In this document: piece by piece, positions 7,602-55,070 of the stretch
How the letters are laid out: every line of letters starts with the position of its first letter
Position numbering within the stretch: position 1 is the first letter of the stretch
Source of the DNA: an uncultured virus (IMG/VR IMGVR_UViG_3300031758_009617)
Lineage: Duplodnaviria; Heunggongvirae; Uroviricota; Caudoviricetes
Length of the DNA stretch: 64,000 bases
Virus record (IMG/VR): IMGVR_UViG_3300031758_009617
Direction: 5' to 3' (one strand)
The notes under the pieces: generated by a model
What the model was told of the DNA's origin: nothing
Databases searched by the model: none
What the model saw: the letters and a program-made list of their open reading frames with translations, nothing else
Translations under genes and position numbers: made by a program

Positions 7602-8732
7602 TTAGAAGGGAATGTCATCGGGATACCCCTCAGCCTGTTCGGCTGGGGTCATCGTGACACCTGCATCCACCTTTGTATAGAGGTCGAGAAAGCTCGCCTT
7701 GGTCTCAGAATTGAATCGAGCAATACAGAGATTGATTGCCTTGAGACGGTCACCAAACATAGCGTAGGCGTTCACGATATGCTCCAGACGCCGCGTGGAG
7801 ATGAGTTCATCCACAGCACCCTCCATGAACGTCTTACGAATGATTTCTGCCCATGCCACCAGCTTGTCGGCAAAATCCTCATCCACCTTTTCCACACGCT
7901 CCATCTTCTTCATGATAATCTTCTTCTCCACCCGGGAGTTAGGATACTCCTGTTCGATGGTCACAGCGAAACGCTCGAGGAGTGCATCGTCCAGAATCTG
8001 TGCGGACATGTACTTACCATCGTCAGAACCCTGACCCTTGGTGTTACCCGTTGCCACGATATTGAAACCTGGGGCAGGGTGAATAATCTCGCCCGTCTTT
8101 TTATTGAAATACGGCTTTCCTTCAAGGATTGCCTGTAGGCACATCAGCTTGTTACTGCCGCGGTCGCTCTCGTCCAGAATGACCACAGCGCCGCGCTTCA
8201 TCCCAATGGTCACGGGACCTTCACGATACACCACGTTGCCATCCACAAGAGTATTGCCTCCAATGAGGTCATCCTCGTCAGTTTCAATGGTGACGTTGAC
8301 ACGGATACACTCACGCTTCAATGCGGCACACACCTGCTCCACCATGGTGGTCTTACCATTACCAGACAATCCTGTAATGAACACGGGATAGAATTGCTTG
8401 GAGGCGAGGATGGTCATGAGATCCTTATGAAACCCGAAAGGTACATAGGTGCTATCCTTGTTTGGTACAAGGTTGTCCACCTCAATCTTGAGCTTCGGCT
8501 GCGATAGATACATTGTAGATGCATTACTCACAATAGGTGCCTCTGCCTGAATAGGCGTATAATTTGAAGTGCTTGTAGGCGTGATGGCATAGACGCCGCG
8601 CCGAACCTTGTATGCTGGGTCATTCAAAAACACATTGGGACTTTCACCCACCTCACGGGCGACCGTGAGAACATCAGGACGAGAAAACTCGGTCTTACCA
8701 GTAGCGCGAAGGGCATCAATGAGTCGGGTCAT
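7602..8732 (-). CDS. cobS: CobS-like MoxR/AAA+ ATPase
   Basis: GLSGNGKT, ETDEDDLIGG, ILDESD, GNTKGQGSDDG, ISTRRL; typical of T4-like phage CobS. Confidence 0.9.
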   Translation of the reverse strand: MTRLIDALRATGKTEFSRPDVLTVAREVGESPNVFLNDPAYKVRRGVYAITPTSTSNYTPIQAEAPIVSNASTMYLSQPKLKIEVDNLVPNKDSTYVPFGFHKDLMTILASKQFYPVFITGLSGNGKTTMVEQVCAALKRECIRVNVTIETDEDDLIGGNTLVDGNVVYREGPVTIGMKRGAVVILDESDRGSNKLMCLQAILEGKPYFNKKTGEIIHPAPGFNIVATGNTKGQGSDDGKYMSAQILDDALLERFAVTIEQEYPNSRVEKKIIMKKMERVEKVDEDFADKLVAWAEIIRKTFMEGAVDELISTRRLEHIVNAYAMFGDRLKAINLCIARFNSETKASFLDLYTKVDAGVTMTPAEQAEGYPDDIPF

Positions 8733-8784
8733 GTTTACTCCTGTGTGCTTGAATGATGAAGTGTACATCTCAGATTATACTATA

Positions 8785-11852: not shown

Positions 11853-12222
11853 AATGTCTCGTCACCTGTTGAATACGTTCAATTTGTTTTTGAATAATGT
11901 CTTTACGATTCGGCCAATGAATATATTCCTTGTCAGGATTCTTTTGCAGATTGTAAAGAAGCGGGAGGATCAATTGTTCAACTTCTTGTAACTTGCCACG
12001 TATTTCTTTTGTTAGTAATTGTTTATGCTGTTCAATCAAATCATTTGTATCACCTTCAGTTAGAGCTTCAATTTGTTGCTCTAATTTTTGAATCTTTAGA
12101 AAAAGTTCATCTTTAAATTCTGGGTCAACAATGGCAGGTTGAGGTGTGCCTGACGATGTGGAGGATGAAGAAAATTCATCGTCTGTGAATGTAAAGCCAA
12201 AATCAAAATCATTACTTGCCAT
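11839..12222 (-). CDS. Conserved T4-like hypothetical protein
   Basis: DFDFGFTF N-terminus; ILPLLYNLQKNPDKEYIHWPNR. Confidence 0.75.
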   Translation of the reverse strand: MASNDFDFGFTFTDDEFSSSSTSSGTPQPAIVDPEFKDELFLKIQKLEQQIEALTEGDTNDLIEQHKQLLTKEIRGKLQEVEQLILPLLYNLQKNPDKEYIHWPNRKDIIQKQIERIQQVTRHYGQD

Positions 12223-12748
12223 GTTTCATCCTGCGTTGAAGTTTCTTGTTCTTTTTCTTTAATTTATTTAGTTCCCAACGCAACTTAAAGTTTGATGCAT
12301 GATGTGTGAAGTTTAATCCTTCCATGTGGTCATATTCATGTAACACCACACGGGCAGCAATATTCTTAAATGACATGCGTTGAGTTGTACCAGACACATC
12401 TTGATATTCCACGGTAACTTCAGATGGGCGCTGTAATGTCAGCATGAATCCTGGGAATGACAGACATCCTTCTTCCATTGTGGTCTGTTCTCTACTTACA
12501 CCAATCACAATGGGATTGAATAAGGCATATCGCTGTTCGGCATTACCAAAAACAAACACACGATAAGGTAAGCCCACTTGATTGGCTGATAATCCTAATC
12601 CTCCCAACTGTAACATTCGCTTATGGAGTATCGTTGCCAACTCCTCTGCAATATCGCCATCCTTCTGGAAATCAAACTCAGGGGGCTTTGTGGTCATACG
12701 TGGGTCAGCAAAATGAATTAATTGCAAATCTTCAAGTTTCAAAGTCAT
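12212..12748 (-). CDS. def: Peptide deformylase
   Basis: All three PDF motifs: GLGLSANQVG, EEGCLS, HEYDH. Confidence 0.95.
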   Translation of the reverse strand: MTLKLEDLQLIHFADPRMTTKPPEFDFQKDGDIAEELATILHKRMLQLGGLGLSANQVGLPYRVFVFGNAEQRYALFNPIVIGVSREQTTMEEGCLSFPGFMLTLQRPSEVTVEYQDVSGTTQRMSFKNIAARVVLHEYDHMEGLNFTHHASNFKLRWELNKLKKKNKKLQRRMKHGK

Positions 12749-19983: not shown

Positions 19984-20889
19984 TTATCTCCCAATGACGT
20001 TGCCAAAGACATAACAATGATTTCGTGTGGCAACTTTATAACCACGATTCATTGCTTCGATACACAAATCACCAATATACGGATCCTCTTGAGCATCCTT
20101 TGTGGCGCCGACAGGCATCACCCATACGTCTGGCATGTATCTCCCACATAGTAATCTAATTCTATTTAGGTGATTGTCAAGTTCATCCCAATTTTCTTTT
20201 GTCCCGTTACACACAAATTTCAAAATGGATGTAGCATTGGCAAGTGAATATTCATGAATGTGTTCTGCACTCACCACATTATCTTCACCTGATACCGTGA
20301 ACAATTTTGGACTCATTGACCAATGCCAACGCGCCTTACCATTTCCCATGAATGGGAATTCAAATGACATGAATTTTCTTAATTCTTCTGACAAGGGGCG
20401 TGTGGCATTTGTTTCCACCGTGACAAGTTGTGGTGCATTATTTCTGTCACGCAACACACGAAGAATTTCCATCATTGCCTTTTGTTGCATCATGGGTTCG
20501 CCGCCCGTGAAGCATAGCATGATGGGTTGTTGTGTTACAGGATGAATGAACAATCCTTGTGGGTTATGCTCGCTCTTGTTGGCTTCAACTAAACGGTCAG
20601 CAATTTCTTCGGGAGATGCATCGTGCGCTAGATGCTTGAAACGTTGTGACCAAGAATAGGATGAGTCACACCCAAACTTCCACACGGGAAGGTCATTGAC
20701 ATGCTTCACAGAATCCACATCGAATGTTTCGAATGGTAATTCATATGTAGATGGGTCTGTGGGATTCTTTTGTCCGAATCCACTACAATTTAAATTACAA
20801 CCAAAGAAACGTAACCAAACGGCAGGCGTTCCTGCCAATTCAGCTTCACCTTGAAATGAATAAAAAATTTCTGAGTAACGAATACGCAT
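19984..20889 (-). CDS. queE: 7-carboxy-7-deazaguanine synthase QueE (radical SAM)
   Basis: EIFYSFQGE, RFFGCNLNC...GCDS (long insert before the third Cys), FTGGEP, VETN, SMSPK. Confidence 0.92.
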   Translation of the reverse strand: MRIRYSEIFYSFQGEAELAGTPAVWLRFFGCNLNCSGFGQKNPTDPSTYELPFETFDVDSVKHVNDLPVWKFGCDSSYSWSQRFKHLAHDASPEEIADRLVEANKSEHNPQGLFIHPVTQQPIMLCFTGGEPMMQQKAMMEILRVLRDRNNAPQLVTVETNATRPLSEELRKFMSFEFPFMGNGKARWHWSMSPKLFTVSGEDNVVSAEHIHEYSLANATSILKFVCNGTKENWDELDNHLNRIRLLCGRYMPDVWVMPVGATKDAQEDPYIGDLCIEAMNRGYKVATRNHCYVFGNVIGR

Positions 20890-20918
20890 ATCACACTCCA
20901 ATCACAAAGTTATATAAC

Positions 20919-49029: not shown

Positions 49030-49698
49030 TTATACATGCGGTGCCCATTTATTTAATGGACATGACGCTGAGGCGAGTTGAGTCTTGGTTTTCATGAAAC
49101 AACCACACTCAGTACAGCGAAATGCATCTTTTTCCAACTTGTCACATGACTGACAAATATTCATACGTTCAAATCCCACTTCAGTAGGAACAATGACAGG
49201 CAATCCTTTTGCGGCGTTTTTTCCTGTTTTCCACATTTCTTTGGCAAGATTCCGTGCCTGTTGAAATACTGAAGGAAACTTATGAAGGGTTTCCTTCTCC
49301 TGTTCTAAAAAATAATCAACCTTTAAAATGGTTTCTTGTTCTTCAGGTGTGAAACGAGCTTGTTCATATGTCAATCCTGTCATCATTTTTGTGATGATGT
49401 TTAAATCATCATTCAATGTGTTATTGAATATGGCAAATCGCCAGAACACAGGAGTTTGATTTTTCGGAAGAAAATAGTATAATGTGGGAGTTTGGGCACG
49501 AGGAAATCCCATGAGATGTTCTGGGATACACATGGTGTAATATACCACAGGTGTAGGATGTTCTTGTAGCTTTTGTTCTAACTGCTGCTGTTCTGGTTTT
49601 AATCCATTTTCACACCCTTCAGATATCACAAGTATTAAAATGGGCACAGACGATGTATCAATGATGTTGGCTACATCAGGAAATGTGTTTGGTTGCAT
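49030..49698 (-). CDS. Thioredoxin-like domain fused to a C-terminal Cys cluster
   Basis: LVISEGC...QTPTLYYF thioredoxin-like pattern; C-terminal ICQSC...RCTECGCFMKTKT...SCPLNKW. Confidence 0.55.
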   Translation of the reverse strand: MQPNTFPDVANIIDTSSVPILILVISEGCENGLKPEQQQLEQKLQEHPTPVVYYTMCIPEHLMGFPRAQTPTLYYFLPKNQTPVFWRFAIFNNTLNDDLNIITKMMTGLTYEQARFTPEEQETILKVDYFLEQEKETLHKFPSVFQQARNLAKEMWKTGKNAAKGLPVIVPTEVGFERMNICQSCDKLEKDAFRCTECGCFMKTKTQLASASCPLNKWAPHV

Positions 49699-50483
49699 TA
49701 TTCTTTCACATATTTAAGGATTAAATCACTAGGAAATAGTTCACTATTATTTCGTAAAAAGACGTAATATTTTTCATATACGTCGGTGAGGTTCATGTCA
49801 TTACGTAAAGGTTCTTTTGCATAATCTTGTGATGCTGCTTTATGTTGTTCAAAATTATTGGGGTCATTAATATTTCCACTTTGTTTATGTCCTGCTATTT
49901 CATGTGGGTCTGACCAATTGAAACAATATGAGGGAACGTAGTGTGTGTAATGTTCATCTAATTGTTTTTCATCGCGTAATTTAGTATACCAACTCAATCC
50001 CTCATATCCTGTGATGTCTGAGCGAAATCCAATTTGTCGAATCCGAGGCATTTTCACAATAACACTTGCTTCCAATGTATTTTGTGTAAGTTCTAATTTA
50101 TGTTGAGTGGCAAAGAAACTTTTTTGAGGTTTCCATGCATCTGTACCCACTTCTTCTATTTTATCTACAGCTTGTTGAATATGCCAAGGTAGGTAAATGT
50201 CGTCATCATCAGCCAACATGAAATAATCACCTGTGGCGTAGATTACTGCATCACGACAAATTTGTCCTCGATTAGTATACGGAAGACCTGTTTGCATATC
50301 AGTGTTATTGTTTATTAATACAATACGGTCATCAGAAAATCCCAATGACATAGGATATTCCATATCTGTATTTAGGATAATCAGTTCTTTGTTTGGGTAT
50401 GTTTGTGCATTAAACTGCGCAATGATTCTATTGACACATGTATATCTTCTAAATGATGTACAGACAAAACTAACTTTTTTCAT
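49698..50483 (-). CDS. GT2-family glycosyltransferase
   Basis: VSFVCTSFRR, AQTYPNKELIILN, ATGDYFMLADDDDIYLPWHI. Confidence 0.88.
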   Translation of the reverse strand: MKKVSFVCTSFRRYTCVNRIIAQFNAQTYPNKELIILNTDMEYPMSLGFSDDRIVLINNNTDMQTGLPYTNRGQICRDAVIYATGDYFMLADDDDIYLPWHIQQAVDKIEEVGTDAWKPQKSFFATQHKLELTQNTLEASVIVKMPRIRQIGFRSDITGYEGLSWYTKLRDEKQLDEHYTHYVPSYCFNWSDPHEIAGHKQSGNINDPNNFEQHKAASQDYAKEPLRNDMNLTDVYEKYYVFLRNNSELFPSDLILKYVKE

Positions 50484-51106
50484 AACTGTTCCTGGTTATT
50501 TAATCTATTCCAAATTTCAGGCGACCAACTGTACAATGATAAATGTTTTGCATATTTATTTTCAAATTCTCCGTACACAAAATATTCTATATTCTTTTCC
50601 CTCATCTTGTTTTTAATAACTTCGTGTGTGGTTTCATAACTATACCCTAAAGAAGATTTAACAACACTACCAAACCAACTAGGCCCATACCAATTATTGC
50701 TATCATTTATTTGTTGTGTACAGTATTCTAGAACATCTAAATCTTTTTTTGCACCAAATACATTATTTGGAATAGTTAAGTCGCCTTCGTTGTGGTATAA
50801 AAATACCCCATCATAATTTAAAAAATCGTCCAATGAATTCACCGGTTTAAAATCAATATCCAAGTAGAATCCTCCAAATTCTTTAACAGCCCAAATACGT
50901 AACAAGTCTGCACAAAAAGCATAGTTTTTTATTGAGTAGAATTTGTCATACCAATTTTGAATATTTTTAGATAATGGTGGGGGCGAAGACCAGAAAATAT
51001 ATTCGTAATCCGAGTGCATCTCTTTTATTTCATTTGCTAGTTTCTGTTCTCGCTTGGGTAATTTAAAATCCCCTACCCATATTTGATGAATTATTTTTGG
51101 TATCAT
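50480..51106 (-). CDS. GT32 (OCH1-like, DxD sugar-binding) glycosyltransferase
   Basis: MIPKIIHQIW, YAFCADLLR, GGFYLDIDF, GP. Confidence 0.9.
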   Translation of the reverse strand: MIPKIIHQIWVGDFKLPKREQKLANEIKEMHSDYEYIFWSSPPPLSKNIQNWYDKFYSIKNYAFCADLLRIWAVKEFGGFYLDIDFKPVNSLDDFLNYDGVFLYHNEGDLTIPNNVFGAKKDLDVLEYCTQQINDSNNWYGPSWFGSVVKSSLGYSYETTHEVIKNKMREKNIEYFVYGEFENKYAKHLSLYSWSPEIWNRLNNQEQL

Positions 51107-51676
51107 TCATCTTCTCCATACGGCATCTTCACCTTCTATAATTAATGTATATCTATTTTTTTGAAGGCGTGAATATGTCTGAGCCAATTCTTCTTTTAAG
51201 CAATGTGTTATTTCAAACTCTATTTGTATTGGATGAACAGAAGAATCAAGTATACTGTTAACAACTACACAATCATGACCCTCTGTGTCTATCTTAACTA
51301 AATCCACAGATTCGATTTGATAACGTTCCACAAGGGTAGACCATGTGATGGCTTCTATTTTATGGTTAGTTAACATTCCTGTCTCTAACATCTTTTTTGC
51401 TTCAGAATGACCTCGGTGGGGTTTAATTATAGTGGCCCAACCTTTTGTGAAACCTAAATTATACTTTTCTTGATTTTCGGGTTCAACCCAAAATAAATCT
51501 ACTATGTTGTTTTCTGCTGATATAGCAACGTTTATCTTAGTTACATTAGGTTTATCGGGTAATCGGTCTAGATATGTTTTTACAGGTTCGACTGACAAAC
51601 CTATTTGTTCAGGTGTACACCCTTCTAATAACGTGTGGTAGTCGCATGTGCCTATTTCAACAAAATCATATCTCAT
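51107..51676 (-). CDS. FkbM-family methyltransferase
   Basis: FVEIG, GLSVEP, NVAIS, VDLVKIDTEGHD, IEFE. Confidence 0.88.
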   Translation of the reverse strand: MRYDFVEIGTCDYHTLLEGCTPEQIGLSVEPVKTYLDRLPDKPNVTKINVAISAENNIVDLFWVEPENQEKYNLGFTKGWATIIKPHRGHSEAKKMLETGMLTNHKIEAITWSTLVERYQIESVDLVKIDTEGHDCVVVNSILDSSVHPIQIEFEITHCLKEELAQTYSRLQKNRYTLIIEGEDAVWRR

Positions 51677-52623
51677 AGTAAACAACTCGTTTTAGCGGTT
51701 TCAAGAATTTCTTGTACATACTTATATGTACACATCTTTTCGTTATAATTTTCAAGAGTAATATTATTATACGGTAATTTTCCGTCAACATACTTACCCT
51801 TAAAAAAAGTTCTGTCCTTATCTGCTGTTTCTCCTGTAACTCCCGCATTATGCATGATAGTACATTTCTCCCAAAAGTCAAGACCGTGCATAGGCCATGT
51901 GAACTCTAATTCGTCCACCACTTTGGTATCATGTCCAAAATACCAACCATTCCATAAAACTGCCCACATATCAGCAGTCCATTTTTGTATGGGGTGATAT
52001 TTATCGGTTTGAGGAAATGCTTTCAGATGGTCAAGAAAAAATTGATACAATTTTTCAGAATCCTCATACACCTTTTTCCAAAAAGCAGCATCAATGTTTT
52101 TCATGAGATATTGAGCACCTCCACTGTGCATCTCATATTGTACCGGAACATCTTCACTTATACCTACAATTTCACACATGCGTTCGTACACACCACATTT
52201 TTTGCTTTTAATATATTCTGCTCCAATGTAATAGCGCGTGTCACTTAAATACCAAACATCGTCATGCACTAAATGGTCCCATTGTGGGGGCTTCGTGAGA
52301 ATGATATCGCAATCATGATACATAATGGCTTCATCTTTTAAATAAGGATGCTTCTCAAAATGTTTTTGTAGAATGTGTGGACGAATTGAAGAAATATATA
52401 CCGAATTTTCTCTGTCATCATTATAAAAAAAGAATCGAACCGTGTTATAGTGATTAGCTAATTTAATCCAAGCATCAGGGATATGATTGTTTTTAATGGA
52501 ACATACAATATCTATATTGTTTGGATTTAAACCATTTTTTAAAAAATTGTGTATCATAACCTCAACCTGCCATGTGTAATAATCAATGGCAGGTTGGGCT
52601 GATATATAACGTAAGTTTTTCAT
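51673..52623 (-). CDS. GT-A glycosyltransferase resembling GT95/GT96 peptidyl O-glycosyltransferases
   Basis: YYTWQVEVMIHNF, YISSIRP, YHDCDIILTKP (DxD), GGAQY, WTADMWA, IMHNAG. Confidence 0.65.
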   Translation of the reverse strand: MKNLRYISAQPAIDYYTWQVEVMIHNFLKNGLNPNNIDIVCSIKNNHIPDAWIKLANHYNTVRFFFYNDDRENSVYISSIRPHILQKHFEKHPYLKDEAIMYHDCDIILTKPPQWDHLVHDDVWYLSDTRYYIGAEYIKSKKCGVYERMCEIVGISEDVPVQYEMHSGGAQYLMKNIDAAFWKKVYEDSEKLYQFFLDHLKAFPQTDKYHPIQKWTADMWAVLWNGWYFGHDTKVVDELEFTWPMHGLDFWEKCTIMHNAGVTGETADKDRTFFKGKYVDGKLPYNNITLENYNEKMCTYKYVQEILETAKTSCLL

Positions 52624-52652
52624 AAAGTAAATATCACCTTGTTGTTAATGAT

Positions 52653-54098
52653 TTAGCAGATACATGCACCACCTGAACAACAGCCAGGATCACAGTTTTG
52701 TACCAAATATCCATATGTGATTGTGCAATCGTCATTTTGAAGGTCACATACAGCAGCGTCACCTATACATGTTGATGTGCCAGGTAAACAACCCACGACA
52801 CATGTTGTCGTTGTTGTTGTTGCTGCTGCTGTTGTAGTTGTTGTTGCTGCTGCTGTTGTAGTTGTTGTGGGAGCTGCTGTTGTAGTTGTTGTGGGAGCTG
52901 CAGTTGTTGTCGTTGTTCCGCCTGGGCACGATGTTGGGCCTGTCAAGTTACCTGCGCCTGTTACTTGATAGTATACCCCACCTCCATCGCCATAATAACC
53001 GGCGTCTGCAAACGTGCCACATCCCGAGTCAGTATACAACTTGGTTCCACCCACATAATATGTGAATTGTGCTGCGGCTGAACAGGCTCCAGATATACTT
53101 CCTTGAACACCTGAAAGTCCCAATGTTGAACTATAACAGACTGCTGTTGTAGTAGTTGTGGCTGCTGTTGTAGTAGTTGTGGCTGCTGTTGTAGTTGTAG
53201 TAGTTGTTGCTGGGGGTGAGCCTGAACATTGAGAGTCGTTGGTACATACTCCAAATCCACCTGATGTAGATCCACCTTGTCCGCTTACATCTACAATCAA
53301 CGTACCTGGTGCTACACATAAATTAACAAATTGGCCGAAATCCAATGATCCTTGTATATATCCAGCACTACCATAGGGTATATAGTCGAACACATAGGTT
53401 TGTTGATTGTTGAATGGTGAAGTGTTGTATACGGTCCAACAATCACCGAGCGCCGCTGTGGTTGTTGATGTAGTTGATGTTGTTGATGTAGATGTTGTAG
53501 ATGTTGTAGATGTTGTAGATGTTGTAGATGTAGATGTCGTCGTTGTTGGTGGTTCTGTTGTTGATGTCGTCGTTGTTGGTGGTTCTGTTGTAGATGTTGT
53601 AGATGTTGTTGATGTCGTCGTTGTTGGTGGTTCTGTTGTAGATGTTGTAGATGTTGTAGATGTTGTTGATGTCGTCGTTGTTGGTGGTTCTGTTGTTGAT
53701 GTCGTCGTTGTTGTTGATGTGGATGTTGTAGTTGTTGGTGCCGCGGTAGTTGTTGATGTGGATGTTGTAGTTGTTGGTGCCGCGGTAGTTGTTGATGTGG
53801 ATGTTGTAGTTGTTGGTGCCGCGGTAGTTGTTGATGTGGATGTTGTAGTTGTTGGTGCCGCGGTAGTTGTAGTAGTAAAATTATGATTATAGGCAAAAAA
53901 CTCACTGATAGCATGAGGTGTTGAACCGTCAGGATAATTACCTACCGCACCCGAAGTGTTAGCAGGCACCTTAGGAGAAGGATCCAATGTGTTAACATTG
54001 TTTGTAGACAATGACTGAAGGGATAGTTCACTTGACGGCAATCCCTTTTCGTCGCCTACATCTTTAATTGAAATTTGCCCGCTGGATACGATGGCCAT
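52653..54098 (-). CDS. Mucin-like Thr/Ser/Pro-repeat, Cys-rich putative fibre-tip protein
   Basis: Adhesin-type N-terminus MAIVSSGQISIKDV...PHAISEFFAYNH; three Thr-rich tracts separating Cys domains with 4, 4 and 10 Cys; GGAG RBS; follows an S74 fibre. Confidence 0.8.
   Translation of the reverse strand: MAIVSSGQISIKDVGDEKGLPSSELSLQSLSTNNVNTLDPSPKVPANTSGAVGNYPDGSTPHAISEFFAYNHNFTTTTTAAPTTTTSTSTTTAAPTTTTSTSTTTAAPTTTTSTSTTTAAPTTTTSTSTTTTTSTTEPPTTTTSTTSTTSTTSTTEPPTTTTSTTSTTSTTEPPTTTTSTTEPPTTTTSTSTTSTTSTTSTTSTSTTSTTSTTTAALGDCWTVYNTSPFNNQQTYVFDYIPYGSAGYIQGSLDFGQFVNLCVAPGTLIVDVSGQGGSTSGGFGVCTNDSQCSGSPPATTTTTTTAATTTTTAATTTTTAVCYSSTLGLSGVQGSISGACSAAAQFTYYVGGTKLYTDSGCGTFADAGYYGDGGGVYYQVTGAGNLTGPTSCPGGTTTTTAAPTTTTTAAPTTTTTAAATTTTTAAATTTTTTCVVGCLPGTSTCIGDAAVCDLQNDDCTITYGYLVQNCDPGCCSGGACIC
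53458..53876 (-). repeat. Coding tandem repeats of the mucin-like tract
   Basis: Four perfect 39-nt units at 53710-53865 (TAAPTTTTSTSTT), four EPPTTTT units and variable 9-nt STT runs (gatgttgta). Confidence 0.95.
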
Positions 54099-54119: not shown

Positions 54120-55070
54120 TTACTTAGTGCAGTTGCACTTACTTAACTTATCATCCAATTCCTTAATGGCTTCAATCAACAACCCAATCATCTTTTCATA
54201 CTTCACAGCCATGTGACCACTTTCACGGGTTGTTACAACTTCAGGTAGTACACCGGCAACGTCTTGTGCAATAACACCTGTATCTGCCCCATGTAATCCT
54301 AATGCATTAGCTTCTTCATTCCAAGTATATGTGACACCGCGAAGTGCCTTCACCTTTGTGAGAGCATCAGAAATAACTGCAACATCTGTCTTTAATCCTG
54401 CATCTGAGGATGAGAAGGCAATGATGTCACCTGATGCCTTGATTTGTCCTGTGGCAGCACCTGTTGCTGAGCCCACATTGATACTTCCAAATGTCACGTT
54501 ACTTGCTGTTCCTACGGCTTGACCAATGGCAACAGTGGGTGTGGCACTCTCACCACTATTATTTGTTAATGTAACACCTGTGCCTGCCACTAATGATGCG
54601 ACATAATCACCTGTAGTATCGGTGCCTAAAGCAACTGAGTTGGCGGCAATTGTTAACGCTACGTTTGATACGTTTGCAGAACCATCAATGGTGAAGTTAC
54701 CTGTTACATCGCCTGTGGCGAATGTCACGGTGCGACCAGTTGTCCAACCTGCCGATGTGCCTGTGATGTTACTATCAGTGAAGGCGACAGTTTTGCGTGT
54801 TGAACTTGGGGTGAAAAACAAGTTCGTGCCGTTAAATTCGACGGCACCTGCTTGTGGAGTTGTTAAGTTTGTGCCAGACACAAGTTTTACAGGAGCAATG
54901 GTTGTTGTTCCTGTTACAAGAACTAAAGTTCCCGTCATTGTGCCGCCTGATTTTTCCAATTTGGCAACATCTAAACTGTTGAAGTTGGCGTCAACTTCTG
55001 CATTAGTAAGTGGGGCACCTTTGTTTGTTCCTGCTGCTGGGGCTGTTTGGCGAAGCGTTAAAGTAGCCAT
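54120..55070 (-). CDS. Short tail fibre with C-terminal S74 chaperone
   Basis: MATLTLR...KGAPLTNAEVDANF anchor; SSSDAGLK...GVIAQDV...LPEVV...VKYEKMIGLLIEAIKEL. Confidence 0.85.
   Translation of the reverse strand: MATLTLRQTAPAAGTNKGAPLTNAEVDANFNSLDVAKLEKSGGTMTGTLVLVTGTTTIAPVKLVSGTNLTTPQAGAVEFNGTNLFFTPSSTRKTVAFTDSNITGTSAGWTTGRTVTFATGDVTGNFTIDGSANVSNVALTIAANSVALGTDTTGDYVASLVAGTGVTLTNNSGESATPTVAIGQAVGTASNVTFGSINVGSATGAATGQIKASGDIIAFSSSDAGLKTDVAVISDALTKVKALRGVTYTWNEEANALGLHGADTGVIAQDVAGVLPEVVTTRESGHMAVKYEKMIGLLIEAIKELDDKLSKCNCTK

Follow-up and report, generated by a model that had tools for sequence, protein, structure and literature searches.

A putative phage glycosyltransferase with an HPAT-like predicted fold beside a mucin-like protein: a candidate initiator of O-glycosylation on poly-Thr tracts

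Introduction

Which enzyme would place the first sugar on a phage mucin-like protein? The question is raised by IMG/VR record IMGVR_UViG_3300031758_009617, a stretch of 64,000 nucleotides (nt) from an uncultured virus, here called the window, in which a candidate glycosyltransferase (GT) gene directly follows an open reading frame (ORF) for a Thr/Ser-rich, mucin-like protein. A preliminary description of this DNA had put the gene forward as the likeliest to encode the enzyme that starts O-glycosylation of the mucin-like protein, on the strength of a motif order resembling that of the plant and algal hydroxyproline O-arabinosyltransferases (HPATs, family GT95) and peptidyl-serine galactosyltransferases (GT96). 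From comparative sequence analysis and structure prediction, we put at roughly 0.6 the probability that the product is a soluble, metal-dependent GT-A enzyme that places the first sugar on Thr residues of the adjacent mucin-like protein; within this reading, the acceptor, the initiating role, the retention of configuration and the membership of the mucin-like protein in the virion are parts that we infer. The family to which the enzyme belongs, phrog_4417, is probably a new and widespread HPAT-like family of polypeptide O-glycosyltransferases with a poly-Thr acceptor signature.

Results

The glycosyltransferase gene and its mucin-like neighbor

The features on which the argument is built are the following (residue numbers are those of the 316-residue protein, and conservation refers to a 55-sequence family alignment with a mean column identity of 36%, unless stated otherwise).

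51673..52623, minus strand: candidate glycosyltransferase gene, 316 residues, ATG start, the sole long ORF at these coordinates
52653..54098, minus strand: mucin-like ORF, 481 residues, small Cys-bounded domains joined by poly-Thr linkers in the translation; proposed acceptor
53692..53870, minus strand: 39-nt tandem repeat in 4.6 copies (96% matches; Tandem Repeats Finder), encoding the 13-residue unit TAAPTTTTSTSTT
52624..52652, minus strand: 29-nt intergenic gap with the ribosome-binding site AAGGTGA (52634-52640, read from the sequence), 10 nt before the ATG of the GT gene
52567..52581, minus strand: N-terminal motif Y15-x-x-W18-Q19; W18 invariant, Y15 and Q19 conserved in at least 90%
52306..52314, minus strand: D104-C-D106 (the DxD motif), directly after the strand 99-103; invariant in 55 and in 81 sequences
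51964..51981, minus strand: W215-T-A-D-M219-W220 motif; M219 and W220 invariant, W215 conserved in at least 90%
51850..51852, minus strand: H258, a late His in an H-N-A-G motif; H258 and G261 invariant

The preliminary description was accurate about the gene, which is exactly one long minus-strand ORF of 316 residues, and about its neighbor, which is indeed mucin-like and ends 29 nt away. Ser and Thr make up 88% of the richest 50-residue segment of the neighboring protein, which contains 17 Thr/Ser runs, compared with 1 in each of two other ORFs of the window; it matches no Pfam, PHROG or NCBIfam family. At its other end the GT gene overlaps the next ORF, encoding an FkbM-family methyltransferase, by 13 nt. 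Sites resembling promoters or terminators are no more frequent around the GT gene than in shuffled sequence, which makes transcription as one unit plausible.

The motifs described earlier (Y-x-x-WQ, Y-x4-RP, DxD, W-x-x-(D/E)-M-aromatic and a late His) are all present and fall on columns that are invariant or conserved in at least 90% of sequences. The proline P112, described as the end of an 'x5-P' motif after the DxD, is present in this protein, yet the family consensus has no preferred residue at the column. Y76 of Y76-x4-R81-P82 is invariant among the 55 sequences, R81 and P82 are conserved in at least 90% of a second alignment of 81 sequences (A2), and the overall pattern of motif conservation is the same in both. 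The W215-x-x-D218-M219-W220 pattern retrieved 134 relatives from genome contigs. By analogy with other GT-A enzymes, D104 and D106 are the presumed ligands of metal and nucleotide sugar. H258 is presumably a third metal ligand, equivalent to the GT8-type histidine, and H258-x-x-G261 together with K275 presumably corresponds to the GT8 C-terminal metal/phosphate motif.

Some minor features of the mucin-like protein may be recorded here. The module of about 50 residues between its poly-Thr linkers is Cys-bounded, follows a pattern like 'LY.D....(x)..GYY.DG....V..G......C' and matches no Pfam family; it recurs in the ORFs upstream of related GT genes at seven other loci (L007, L012, L015, L018, L025, L041 and L042; labels beginning with L are our own for loci) and may be a small binding domain common to mucin-like proteins. 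Four other viral contigs encode the identical GT protein (100%). Across the window and these records (L003-L006; for example L005:4568-5971) the mucin-like ORF has 481, 467 or 246 residues, and in L004 it is split. The two longer forms, 481 and 467, differ by 14 residues, roughly the size of a single repeat, and the length differences reflect either repeat-number variation or assembly collapse.

Predicted fold

Modeled with AlphaFold2 on the family alignment, the 316-residue protein is predicted to be a GT-A fold glycosyltransferase (predicted local distance difference test score, pLDDT, 97.4; predicted template modeling score, pTM, 0.93). The model consists of a single Rossmann-like alpha/beta/alpha domain that matches solved GT-A enzymes. 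Foldseek found 162 Protein Data Bank (PDB) chains at E ≤ 0.001, the matches listed being GT-A enzymes, and VIA-align found 87 chains at Z ≥ 8. The best VIA-align matches are glycogenin (Z 15.0 over 227 residues), the Skp1 alpha-galactosyltransferase AgtA (14.6) and LgtC (14.5), followed by the catalytic domain of UGGT (13.7), the GT8 protein 3tzt (13.6), WbbM (13.5), LARGE1 (13.1), GlyE (12.7) and GT6 enzymes (11.5-12.1); Foldseek ranks the same enzyme groups, at E 2e-6 to 1e-4. We take all of these nearest solved folds to belong to retaining families of the CAZy classification, and a retaining mechanism is presumed for that reason. The first strand of the model spans residues 4-11 and no hydrophobic N-terminal segment precedes it; since the strand begins at residue 4, there would be no type II membrane anchor.

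The likeness to GT8 (glycogenin, LgtC, GlyE), GT77 (AgtA) and GT24 (UGGT) enzymes extends over 212-246 residues (Z 12.7-15.0) and includes the DxD and the late His, and several of these enzymes act on proteins or protein-bound glycans. In contrast, sequence identity to them is 7-13%, the template modeling (TM) score by query (TMq) is 0.38-0.51, there is no Pfam GT8 match, and some 70-90 residues of the phage protein lie outside the common core. The chlorovirus enzyme PBCV-1 A64R (PDB 2p6w, Z 10.7) offers a precedent for a virus-encoded cytoplasmic GT-A enzyme tied to virion-protein glycosylation. However, it is a far weaker match than GT8 or HPAT, belongs to a virus of eukaryotes and presumably builds glycans of the N-linked type.

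A closer match was found among predicted structures. In the ESM Atlas, clusters of the family itself come first, and the named structural neighbors that follow them are headed by one Chlorophyta and one Streptophyta cluster, both 100% PF23452 (HPAT), with TM by query of 0.76 and 0.75 and 282 and 284 of the 316 residues aligned, on predicted models on both sides; the Streptophyta cluster bears the name 'Hydroxyproline O-arabinosyltransferase-like domain-containing protein'. By language-model features, the HPAT set accounts for 20 of the 30 nearest named Atlas clusters, and in a bacterial cluster of 282-residue proteins (language-model score 0.97) 58% of the members match PF23452. The BFVD collection supplied a yardstick: Orf49 of phage LP65, the most divergent true member of the family (20% identity), has a TMq of 0.75, whereas viral GT8-like proteins reach 0.36-0.51. 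Because its TM equals the Orf49 value, the HPAT domain appears as near in fold as a distant family member, and judged from the models the HPAT fold is much closer than GT8 to the phage GT. No GT95/96 entry occurs among the PDB matches listed (50 each for Foldseek and VIA-align), so that the PDB could not settle the question of GT95/96 affinity. While the top PDB matches are GT8, GT77 and GT24 enzymes, the HPAT neighbors in the ESM Atlas give the family assignment proposed earlier good support at the level of the fold.

HPATs are described as glycosylating extensins and CLE peptides directly at hydroxyls of the peptide, in one source that also presents GT95 as related to GT96 and HPATs as carrying a Golgi type II membrane anchor (passages of PMC8012813). 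The comparison with HPAT1-3 (GT95, PF23452) and the related SGT1 (GT96) is favorable in two respects. HPAT is the nearest named predicted fold, with a GT-A core and a DxD, and HPATs start O-glycans on small peptides and on proteins with repeats, in keeping with the poly-Thr proteins and precursor peptides encoded beside members of the phage family (see below). Unlike HPAT1-3, the phage GT is predicted to be soluble, without a type II anchor or Golgi context, and its presumed acceptor is Thr rather than hydroxyproline or Ser; hydroxyproline would not be expected in the neighboring Thr-rich tracts.

Poly-Thr coding tracts directly upstream of relatives

The arrangement in the window recurs across the family. 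Thirty-five viral loci were fetched with the GT protein, of which 32 have at least 800 nt upstream. At 21 of these 32, no more than 100 nt separate the GT gene from a same-strand Ser/Thr-rich ORF upstream of it (at least 50% in 50 residues), and this holds at 17 when the threshold is raised to at least 60%. The upstream ORFs encode multi-domain proteins of 240-1150 residues, whose common feature is the presence of 'TTTTTAAPTTTTT'-type linkers. Among 80 loci on prokaryote genome contigs, a Ser/Thr-rich ORF is directly upstream at 8 of the 76 with room for one, and these 8 are every locus of that set holding any Ser/Thr-rich ORF.

In a symmetric test, poly-Thr coding runs were counted on each side of the GT gene at 107 loci with 1.5 kb on both sides.

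All loci (n = 107): poly-Thr run upstream at 53, downstream at 5
Single-domain genes (n = 63): upstream at 50, downstream at 3
Fused long genes (n = 44): upstream at 3, downstream at 2

The loci were then dereplicated by single-linkage clustering of the GT by identity, followed by a sign test.

Clusters at 90% identity: upstream only 47, downstream only 4, p 2.4e-10
Clusters at 70% identity: upstream only 29, downstream only 4, p 1.1e-5

An independent-pairs test of the fused form against poly-Thr on the tree had only 4-5 pairs and no power. The upstream partners are not homologous to one another: they include tail tubes (Phage_TTP_1), capsids (Phage_capsid), small immunoglobulin (Ig)/FN3-like proteins and fibre-like proteins of 300-1570 residues. 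This diversity argues for a functional link rather than an inherited neighborhood.

The association also holds in the reverse direction. Among 80 viral loci picked solely for a (ACN)10 tract, a family GT occurs within 3 kb at 7, and in all seven the poly-Thr ORF is followed immediately downstream by the GT gene on its own strand; a poly-Ala control set picked for (GCN)10 contains a family GT at 0 of 80 loci (Fisher p 0.014). From the remaining 73 poly-Thr loci, downstream neighbors were callable at 27 (37 proteins). GTs of other families occur beside the poly-Thr ORF at three of these (L143:1865-3834, L157:630-2657 and L205:2007-2897), and the neighbors at the others are lysins or unknowns. 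Since lysins or unknowns were found at most of the loci scanned, poly-Thr alone does not imply a nearby GT.

The GTs at the three loci are a PF11397 'GlcNAc' GT accompanied by a radical SAM/SPASM enzyme, two GT2 genes, and one GT2 gene. Other GT families may do the same job at some poly-Thr loci.

Isolated phages and loci with a lone glycosyltransferase

Among isolated phages, the following sequences stand upstream of the family GT.

Enterococcus phiFL1A: major tail protein with a closing run of 21 Thr/Ser residues
Lactococcus 1706: major tail protein, with T10-HHD at its end
Clostridium FA88: protein in the tail-tube position ending in TTTTIAPTTTTSTS
Staphylococcus SA2: tail tube ending in T8, plus an overlapping 87-residue poly-Thr ORF
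Lactobacillus iLp84: five Thr runs in a 125-residue protein; T7 at the ends of both capsid and tail tube
Lactobacillus Iacchus: six runs in a 128-residue protein
Lactobacillus SAC12B: protein with an Ig domain and a tail of TTV(K/A)P repeats
Enterococcus Planchet: poly-Thr coded in a second frame, immediately behind the stop of the capsid gene
Lactococcus bIL285: as in Planchet, poly-Thr coded in a second frame immediately behind the capsid gene's stop
Chryseobacterium MA9V-3: 428-residue protein with an internal 21-residue run

A Thr run is thus present in the directly upstream gene or gap in 9 of the 10 phages, the exception being SAC12B. In phiFL1A, iLp84 and 1706 the capsid and tail-tube proteins both end in poly-Thr, and in Herelleviridae phages of Lactobacillus the gene directly before the GT encodes a small Ig-like protein whose tail is poly-Thr or Thr-Pro. 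By Pfam, many of the upstream genes encode tail tubes (Phage_TTP_1) or capsids (Phage_capsid), and the downstream genes encode tail chaperones or connectors. At 14 siphophage and prophage loci, 0 of 96 neighboring proteins match any GT family; with no other GT nearby, the enzyme at those loci cannot merely extend a glycan started by a neighboring GT, and it is the sole candidate there for acting on the polypeptide.

The poly-Thr segments of Planchet (L118:3778-3873), bIL285 (L124:3956-3973) and SA2 (L123:3667-3930) are out of frame or overlapping, which suggests a programmed frameshift or read-through that adds a poly-Thr tail to some subunits.

A citing passage (PMC12619734) links mycobacteriophage GTs to glycans at the C-termini of capsid and tail-tube subunits, and reports that virion glycans shield mycobacteriophages from antibody recognition. 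The position of relatives of the phage GT directly after tail-tube or capsid genes with poly-Thr ends (phiFL1A, 1706, FA88, SA2, iLp84 and several prophages) resembles that system. The two differ in their hosts, which here are Bacillota, Bacteroidota and the hosts of T4-like aquatic phages, and in the predicted target, which in the window is a fibre-like mucin ORF rather than capsid or tube. The GT has tblastn matches at E ≤ 1e-5 in 77 phage records, none of them from a Mycobacterium phage, which points to a GT family different from that of the mycobacteriophages.

Fused forms in Bacteroidota and peptide biosynthesis clusters

Chromosomal forms of the family in Bacteroidota are longer (450-711 residues): they begin with the family domain and carry a C-terminal domain that is GT7C- or GT2-like. 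At 7 of the 11 Bacteroidota loci scanned, the fused GT is accompanied by C39-peptidase ABC exporters, HlyD, LanC-like cyclases, a split LanB dehydratase or radical SAM enzymes, genes typical of clusters for peptides that are made on the ribosome and modified after translation (RiPPs), and one cluster contains a DUF7164 gene; at none of the loci scanned is the fused GT in a polysaccharide locus. Small ORFs in these clusters encode typical double-glycine-leader precursors, and the cores of three, in clusters from Chitinophaga or Sphingobacterium, end in poly-Thr.

L066:247-492: precursor core ending in '...CDT13KAPAVIL'
L069:5602-5850: precursor core ending in '...KITTTTTSSAPATQ', directly upstream of the GT gene
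L051:2182-2376: precursor core ending in '...GKTTTVPTTPAPTA'

Poly-Thr peptides are thus met again in a setting unrelated to virions, which by gene content is a second, independent context for the association. The clusters with two-domain GTs are candidate sources of O-glycosylated RiPPs. They share with the glycocin GTs SunS/GccA (GT2) the combination of a cytoplasmic GT, a precursor peptide and a C39-peptidase ABC exporter; SunS/GccA differ in having a GT2 rather than an HPAT/GT8-like fold and a single Cys, Ser or Thr target rather than the presumed poly-Thr.

Further double-glycine-leader precursors are encoded at L110:294-1821 (six in tandem), L104:1320-1583 and L071:10193-10414.

Discussion

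Proposed function

The gene stands in a small cassette, whose other members enter the proposed pathway.

51107..51685, minus strand: FkbM-family methyltransferase (PF05050, E 4.6e-9; TIGR01444, E 2.1e-7, below the cut-off), proposed glycan O-methylase
50480..51106, minus strand: GT32-like DXD glycosyltransferase (Gly_transf_sug, PF04488, E 2.8e-12), proposed extender
49698..50483, minus strand: GT2-family glycosyltransferase (PF00535, E 1.8e-6; phrog_14775, glycosyltransferase, E 1.7e-4), proposed extender
49030..49698, minus strand: 222-residue protein with a C-terminal Cys-rich DUF6171 (PF19668, E 3.7e-6), four ORFs downstream of the GT gene

In the mechanism that we propose, the soluble cytoplasmic GT-A enzyme would bind a nucleotide sugar through D104, D106, H258 and a divalent metal, and would recognize an extended poly-Thr segment, a polypeptide rather than a glycan, as its acceptor. 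It would form the first Thr-O-sugar (or Ser-O-sugar) bond, probably with retention, and in this T4-like phage the acceptor would be the mucin-like protein encoded at 52653-54098. The GT32-like and GT2 enzymes could then extend the O-glycan and the FkbM enzyme could methylate it, and it is possible, as a speculation, that the DUF6171 domain helps in recognition or regulation. A fibre or decoration protein of 'bottle-brush' type, densely covered with O-glycans, would result, and its glycan coat may stiffen linkers and protect them from proteases, shield the virion, or serve in adhesion.

Several observations weigh against this proposal. The cassette holds three GTs, and the window alone does not tell which acts first. 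Across relatives, 10 of the 32 viral loci have no Ser/Thr-rich ORF (at least 60%) within 6 kb, and 7 of 35 have none at the threshold of at least 50% (L011, L019, L023, L024, L029, L031 and L037). Poly-Thr runs are absent upstream at 13 of the 63 single-domain loci and, in the fused Bacteroidota genes, are present within 1.5 kb upstream at only 3 of 44. When the GTs are clustered at 50% identity, 7 clusters are upstream only and 1 is downstream only (sign test p 0.07). The poly-Thr trait requires 11 changes on a FastTree tree of the GT, compared with a mean of about 36 in shuffles, and because it is clustered in this way the locus counts overstate the number of independent events. The poly-Ala control differs in GC content from the poly-Thr set (0.53 vs 0.42), and a family GT is lacking within 3 kb at 73 of the 80 viral loci chosen for poly-Thr. 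Finally, the HPAT profile hidden Markov model (HMM) gives no significant match: PF23452 (Pfam gathering cut-off 23.9 bits) matches neither the GT (E ≤ 1) nor anything on the phage record (E ≤ 10), and among family members it is found in 1 of 55 (E 0.23), 0 of 81 (E ≤ 0.01) and 0 of 70 (E ≤ 0.1). An hhalign comparison of our family profile A1 with the DUF7164 (PF23741) protein of L069 was also negative (probability 0.24, E 0.25); DUF7164 follows HPAT in language-model similarity (0.96), yet is absent from the Pfam tallies of the family.

The GT95 affinity seen by the preliminary description is therefore retained for the predicted fold and not for formal membership: as modeled, the enzyme is HPAT-like in fold, and it is not a demonstrated member of GT95/96. 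Its standing as the best candidate initiator has gained from comparative genomics, through the poly-Thr synteny and the loci with a lone GT, whereas the order of action within the three-GT cassette is presumed.

Alternative functions

The main alternative, itself unlikely, is that the 316-residue GT adds a later sugar to a glycan begun on Thr by the GT32-like, the GT2 or a host enzyme. The window's cassette, with its three GTs, would accommodate such a division of labor, the closest solved folds include the glycan-extending LgtC, UGGT, AgtA, LARGE1 and GlyE, and in many relatives a second GT domain is joined to that of the family. However, the enzyme is the only recognizable GT among the 96 neighbors at the 14 siphophage and prophage loci, and it is the phrog_4417 family, not GT2 or GT32, that tracks poly-Thr tracts. 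A common host initiator would also be improbable, given hosts that span Bacillota, Bacteroidota and those of T4-like aquatic phages. The fusions themselves (GT7C in 11, GT2 in 8 and GT6 in 3 of 81 long representatives, with others rarer) fit an initiator coupled to an extender.

A target other than protein is quite improbable. Under this alternative the enzyme would modify host envelope glycans, as in serotype conversion or superinfection exclusion, or phage DNA, and poly-Thr adjacency would merely mark a site where morons insert after structural genes. Gaps past tail-tube or capsid genes are known insertion spots, and in the Herelleviridae phages of Lactobacillus the GT lies near recombinase and sigma-factor genes. 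Phage GTs are, moreover, mostly discussed as DNA- or envelope-modifying in passages of two papers (PMC12801897, PMC12619734). Yet even the Herelleviridae GT directly follows the small Ig-like protein with its poly-Thr or Thr-Pro tail, and insertion sites do not explain the asymmetry of 53 upstream to 5 downstream or the downstream placement of the GT at 7 of 7 loci in the reverse test. The Pfam scan of the window, the model and the neighbors at the 14 loci showed neither a membrane anchor nor a flippase or Gtr-type partner, and the Bacteroidota copies are in peptide clusters rather than polysaccharide loci.

More improbable again is the transfer of a sugar-1-phosphate, in the manner of Stealth proteins or GlcNAc-1-phosphotransferases, which would yield phosphoglycosylated Thr tracts. 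Phosphoglycosylation of Ser-rich repeats is known in protists. Stealth_CR2 matches 5 of 55 members weakly (best E 0.016, below significance), profile A1 gives a weak match to the catalytic domain of GNPTAB around the DxD (E 0.54), and the model matches CpsY (Z 10.2) and GlcNAc-1-phosphotransferases (Z 9.7-9.9). These sequence scores are not significant, however, and the structural ones are well under those of GT8, GT77 and GT24 enzymes (Z 13.6-15) and of HPAT (TM 0.75).

The least probable alternative is an inactive, decayed or structural GT-like protein, or a poly-Thr ORF that is non-coding repeat DNA: the repeat ORF does vary in length among records with an identical GT, but the catalytic-type residues are all invariant, the gene is intact with a good ribosome-binding site, the protein is unchanged in four other viral contigs, and the poly-Thr frame is open through 1446 nt and has equivalents in many relatives.

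Initiation on Thr by the phage GT, taken as the preferred reading, leads to a broader proposal to which we give somewhat less than even odds. The GT95/GT96 superfamily of peptidyl-O-glycosyltransferases would have in phrog_4417 a branch of prokaryotes and viruses that reads Thr runs; phages of Bacillota and Bacteroidota and T4-like aquatic phages would use it to coat capsids, tubes, Ig-like decorations and fibres with mucin-type O-glycans, and the fused Bacteroidota forms would glycosylate the poly-Thr tails of lanthipeptide-like RiPPs.

Implications

If these proposals are correct, virion O-glycosylation would be widespread well beyond the mycobacteriophages, in phages of Enterococcus, Staphylococcus, Lactobacillus, Lactococcus, Clostridium and Chryseobacterium and in aquatic T4-like phages, and a 'hypothetical' family of hundreds of clusters would become a predictor of glycosylated virions. 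This could have consequences for the pharmacology of phage therapy and for the adsorption and stability of dairy phages. The enzymes that initiate glycosylation of plant extensins and CLE peptides would have bacterial or phage relatives, and the link to the HPAT fold makes the origin of the plant enzymes directly testable. A soluble enzyme that reads a plain poly-Thr tag would be a tool for cytoplasmic glyco-engineering, and the RiPP clusters suggest that Bacteroidota make a class of lanthipeptide-like products bearing O-glycans, on which the literature search described next found no report.

A full-text literature search, with most subscription journals outside its coverage, found no paper on the phrog_4417 family, none on poly-Thr-tailed phage proteins with an adjacent GT, and no report of such GTs in Bacteroidota RiPP clusters. 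In the passages concerned, a survey of Bacteroidales RiPPs mentions only S-glycosyltransferase domains and unspecified GTs (PMC10352776).

The phage and the surroundings of the cassette

The window is a segment of a T4-like myovirus, as judged from the PHROG annotation of 39 further ORFs, and 61 of its 66 called ORFs are on the minus strand. Genes for replication and expression include RegA, the clamp and clamp loader (gp44/62/45-like), an SbcCD-like nuclease (gp46/47-like) and the late sigma factor (gp55-like). The structural genes include those for the major head protein (gp23-like), scaffold, protease, portal (gp20-like), sheath (gp18-like), tube (gp19-like), terminase (gp17-like) and baseplate wedge. 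The GT gene lies in the tail-fibre module: upstream are a 1902-residue structural protein, the S74 fibre protein listed below and the mucin-like ORF, and further fibre-like ORFs in the same orientation lie downstream of the DUF6171 protein.

54120..55070, minus strand: tail-fibre protein with a C-terminal S74 intramolecular chaperone (PF13884, E 3e-14; tail-fibre PHROGs), flanking the cassette
7602-8768: CobS-like gene (PHROG annotation)
12212-12748: peptide deformylase gene (PHROG annotation)
19984-20901: QueE-like radical SAM gene (PHROG annotation)

The GT32-like neighbor in the cassette also has a weak match to the catalytic GT domain of TcdA/TcdB in Pfam (E 4.5e-6) and one, far under the cut-off, to the LifA/Efa1 model of NCBIfam (E 0.0098). 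We read both as likeness shared in the DXD region only.

Extent and annotation of the family

The 316-residue GT matches the phrog_4417 HMM at E 9.3e-69, with residues 5-309 aligned to positions 2-291 of the 293 in the profile, and PHROGs annotates the family as of unknown function. No Pfam family was found for the protein at E ≤ 1, including Glyco_transf_8 (GT8), and an NCBIfam search gave no family for the GT, the mucin-like ORF, gp51 of phiFL1A or the N-terminal domain of a fused Bacteroidota member. A phmmer search of solved structures returned nothing significant (best E 2.1); TALE-repeat matches of profile A1 among solved structures were rejected as spurious. A search for near-identical DNA in the phage collection with 20 kb gave no match.

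At E ≤ 0.001 the family counts 2333 proteins when clusters of 90% identity and comparable length are searched, and 847 among representatives of 50%-identity clusters, of which 390 reach E ≤ 1e-30. In a profile search (A3) over two phyla, 1 of 301 genomes in each had a match, both being metagenome-assembled genomes (MAGs) already in the set, and a search that used Orf49 of LP65 as a stepping stone added 4 close relatives, none with a Pfam family on record. PF23452 matched none of 5 genomes and none in two phylum samples of 401 genomes each; a control in the search gave no match either, so these zeros carry no weight as to absence. The named single-domain members carry only the label 'hypothetical protein', and the fused Bacteroidota members are labeled 'galactosyltransferase-related', after their C-terminal domain.

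DUF6171 is found at the C-terminus of the GT in the relatives P0074, P0086, P0121 and P0064 (391-423 residues) and, in a Pfam tally of the family, in 4 of 70 members, and ESM Atlas clusters of 394-397 residues represent GT-DUF6171 fusions of the same kind. Forms of 502 and 621 residues, without an upstream Ser/Thr-rich ORF, occur on L023 and L031, which are giant-virus MAGs or large viral contigs (L023 is labeled GVMAG). One further protein, P0124, is a fusion of the phrog_4417 GT with a radical SAM/SPASM enzyme.

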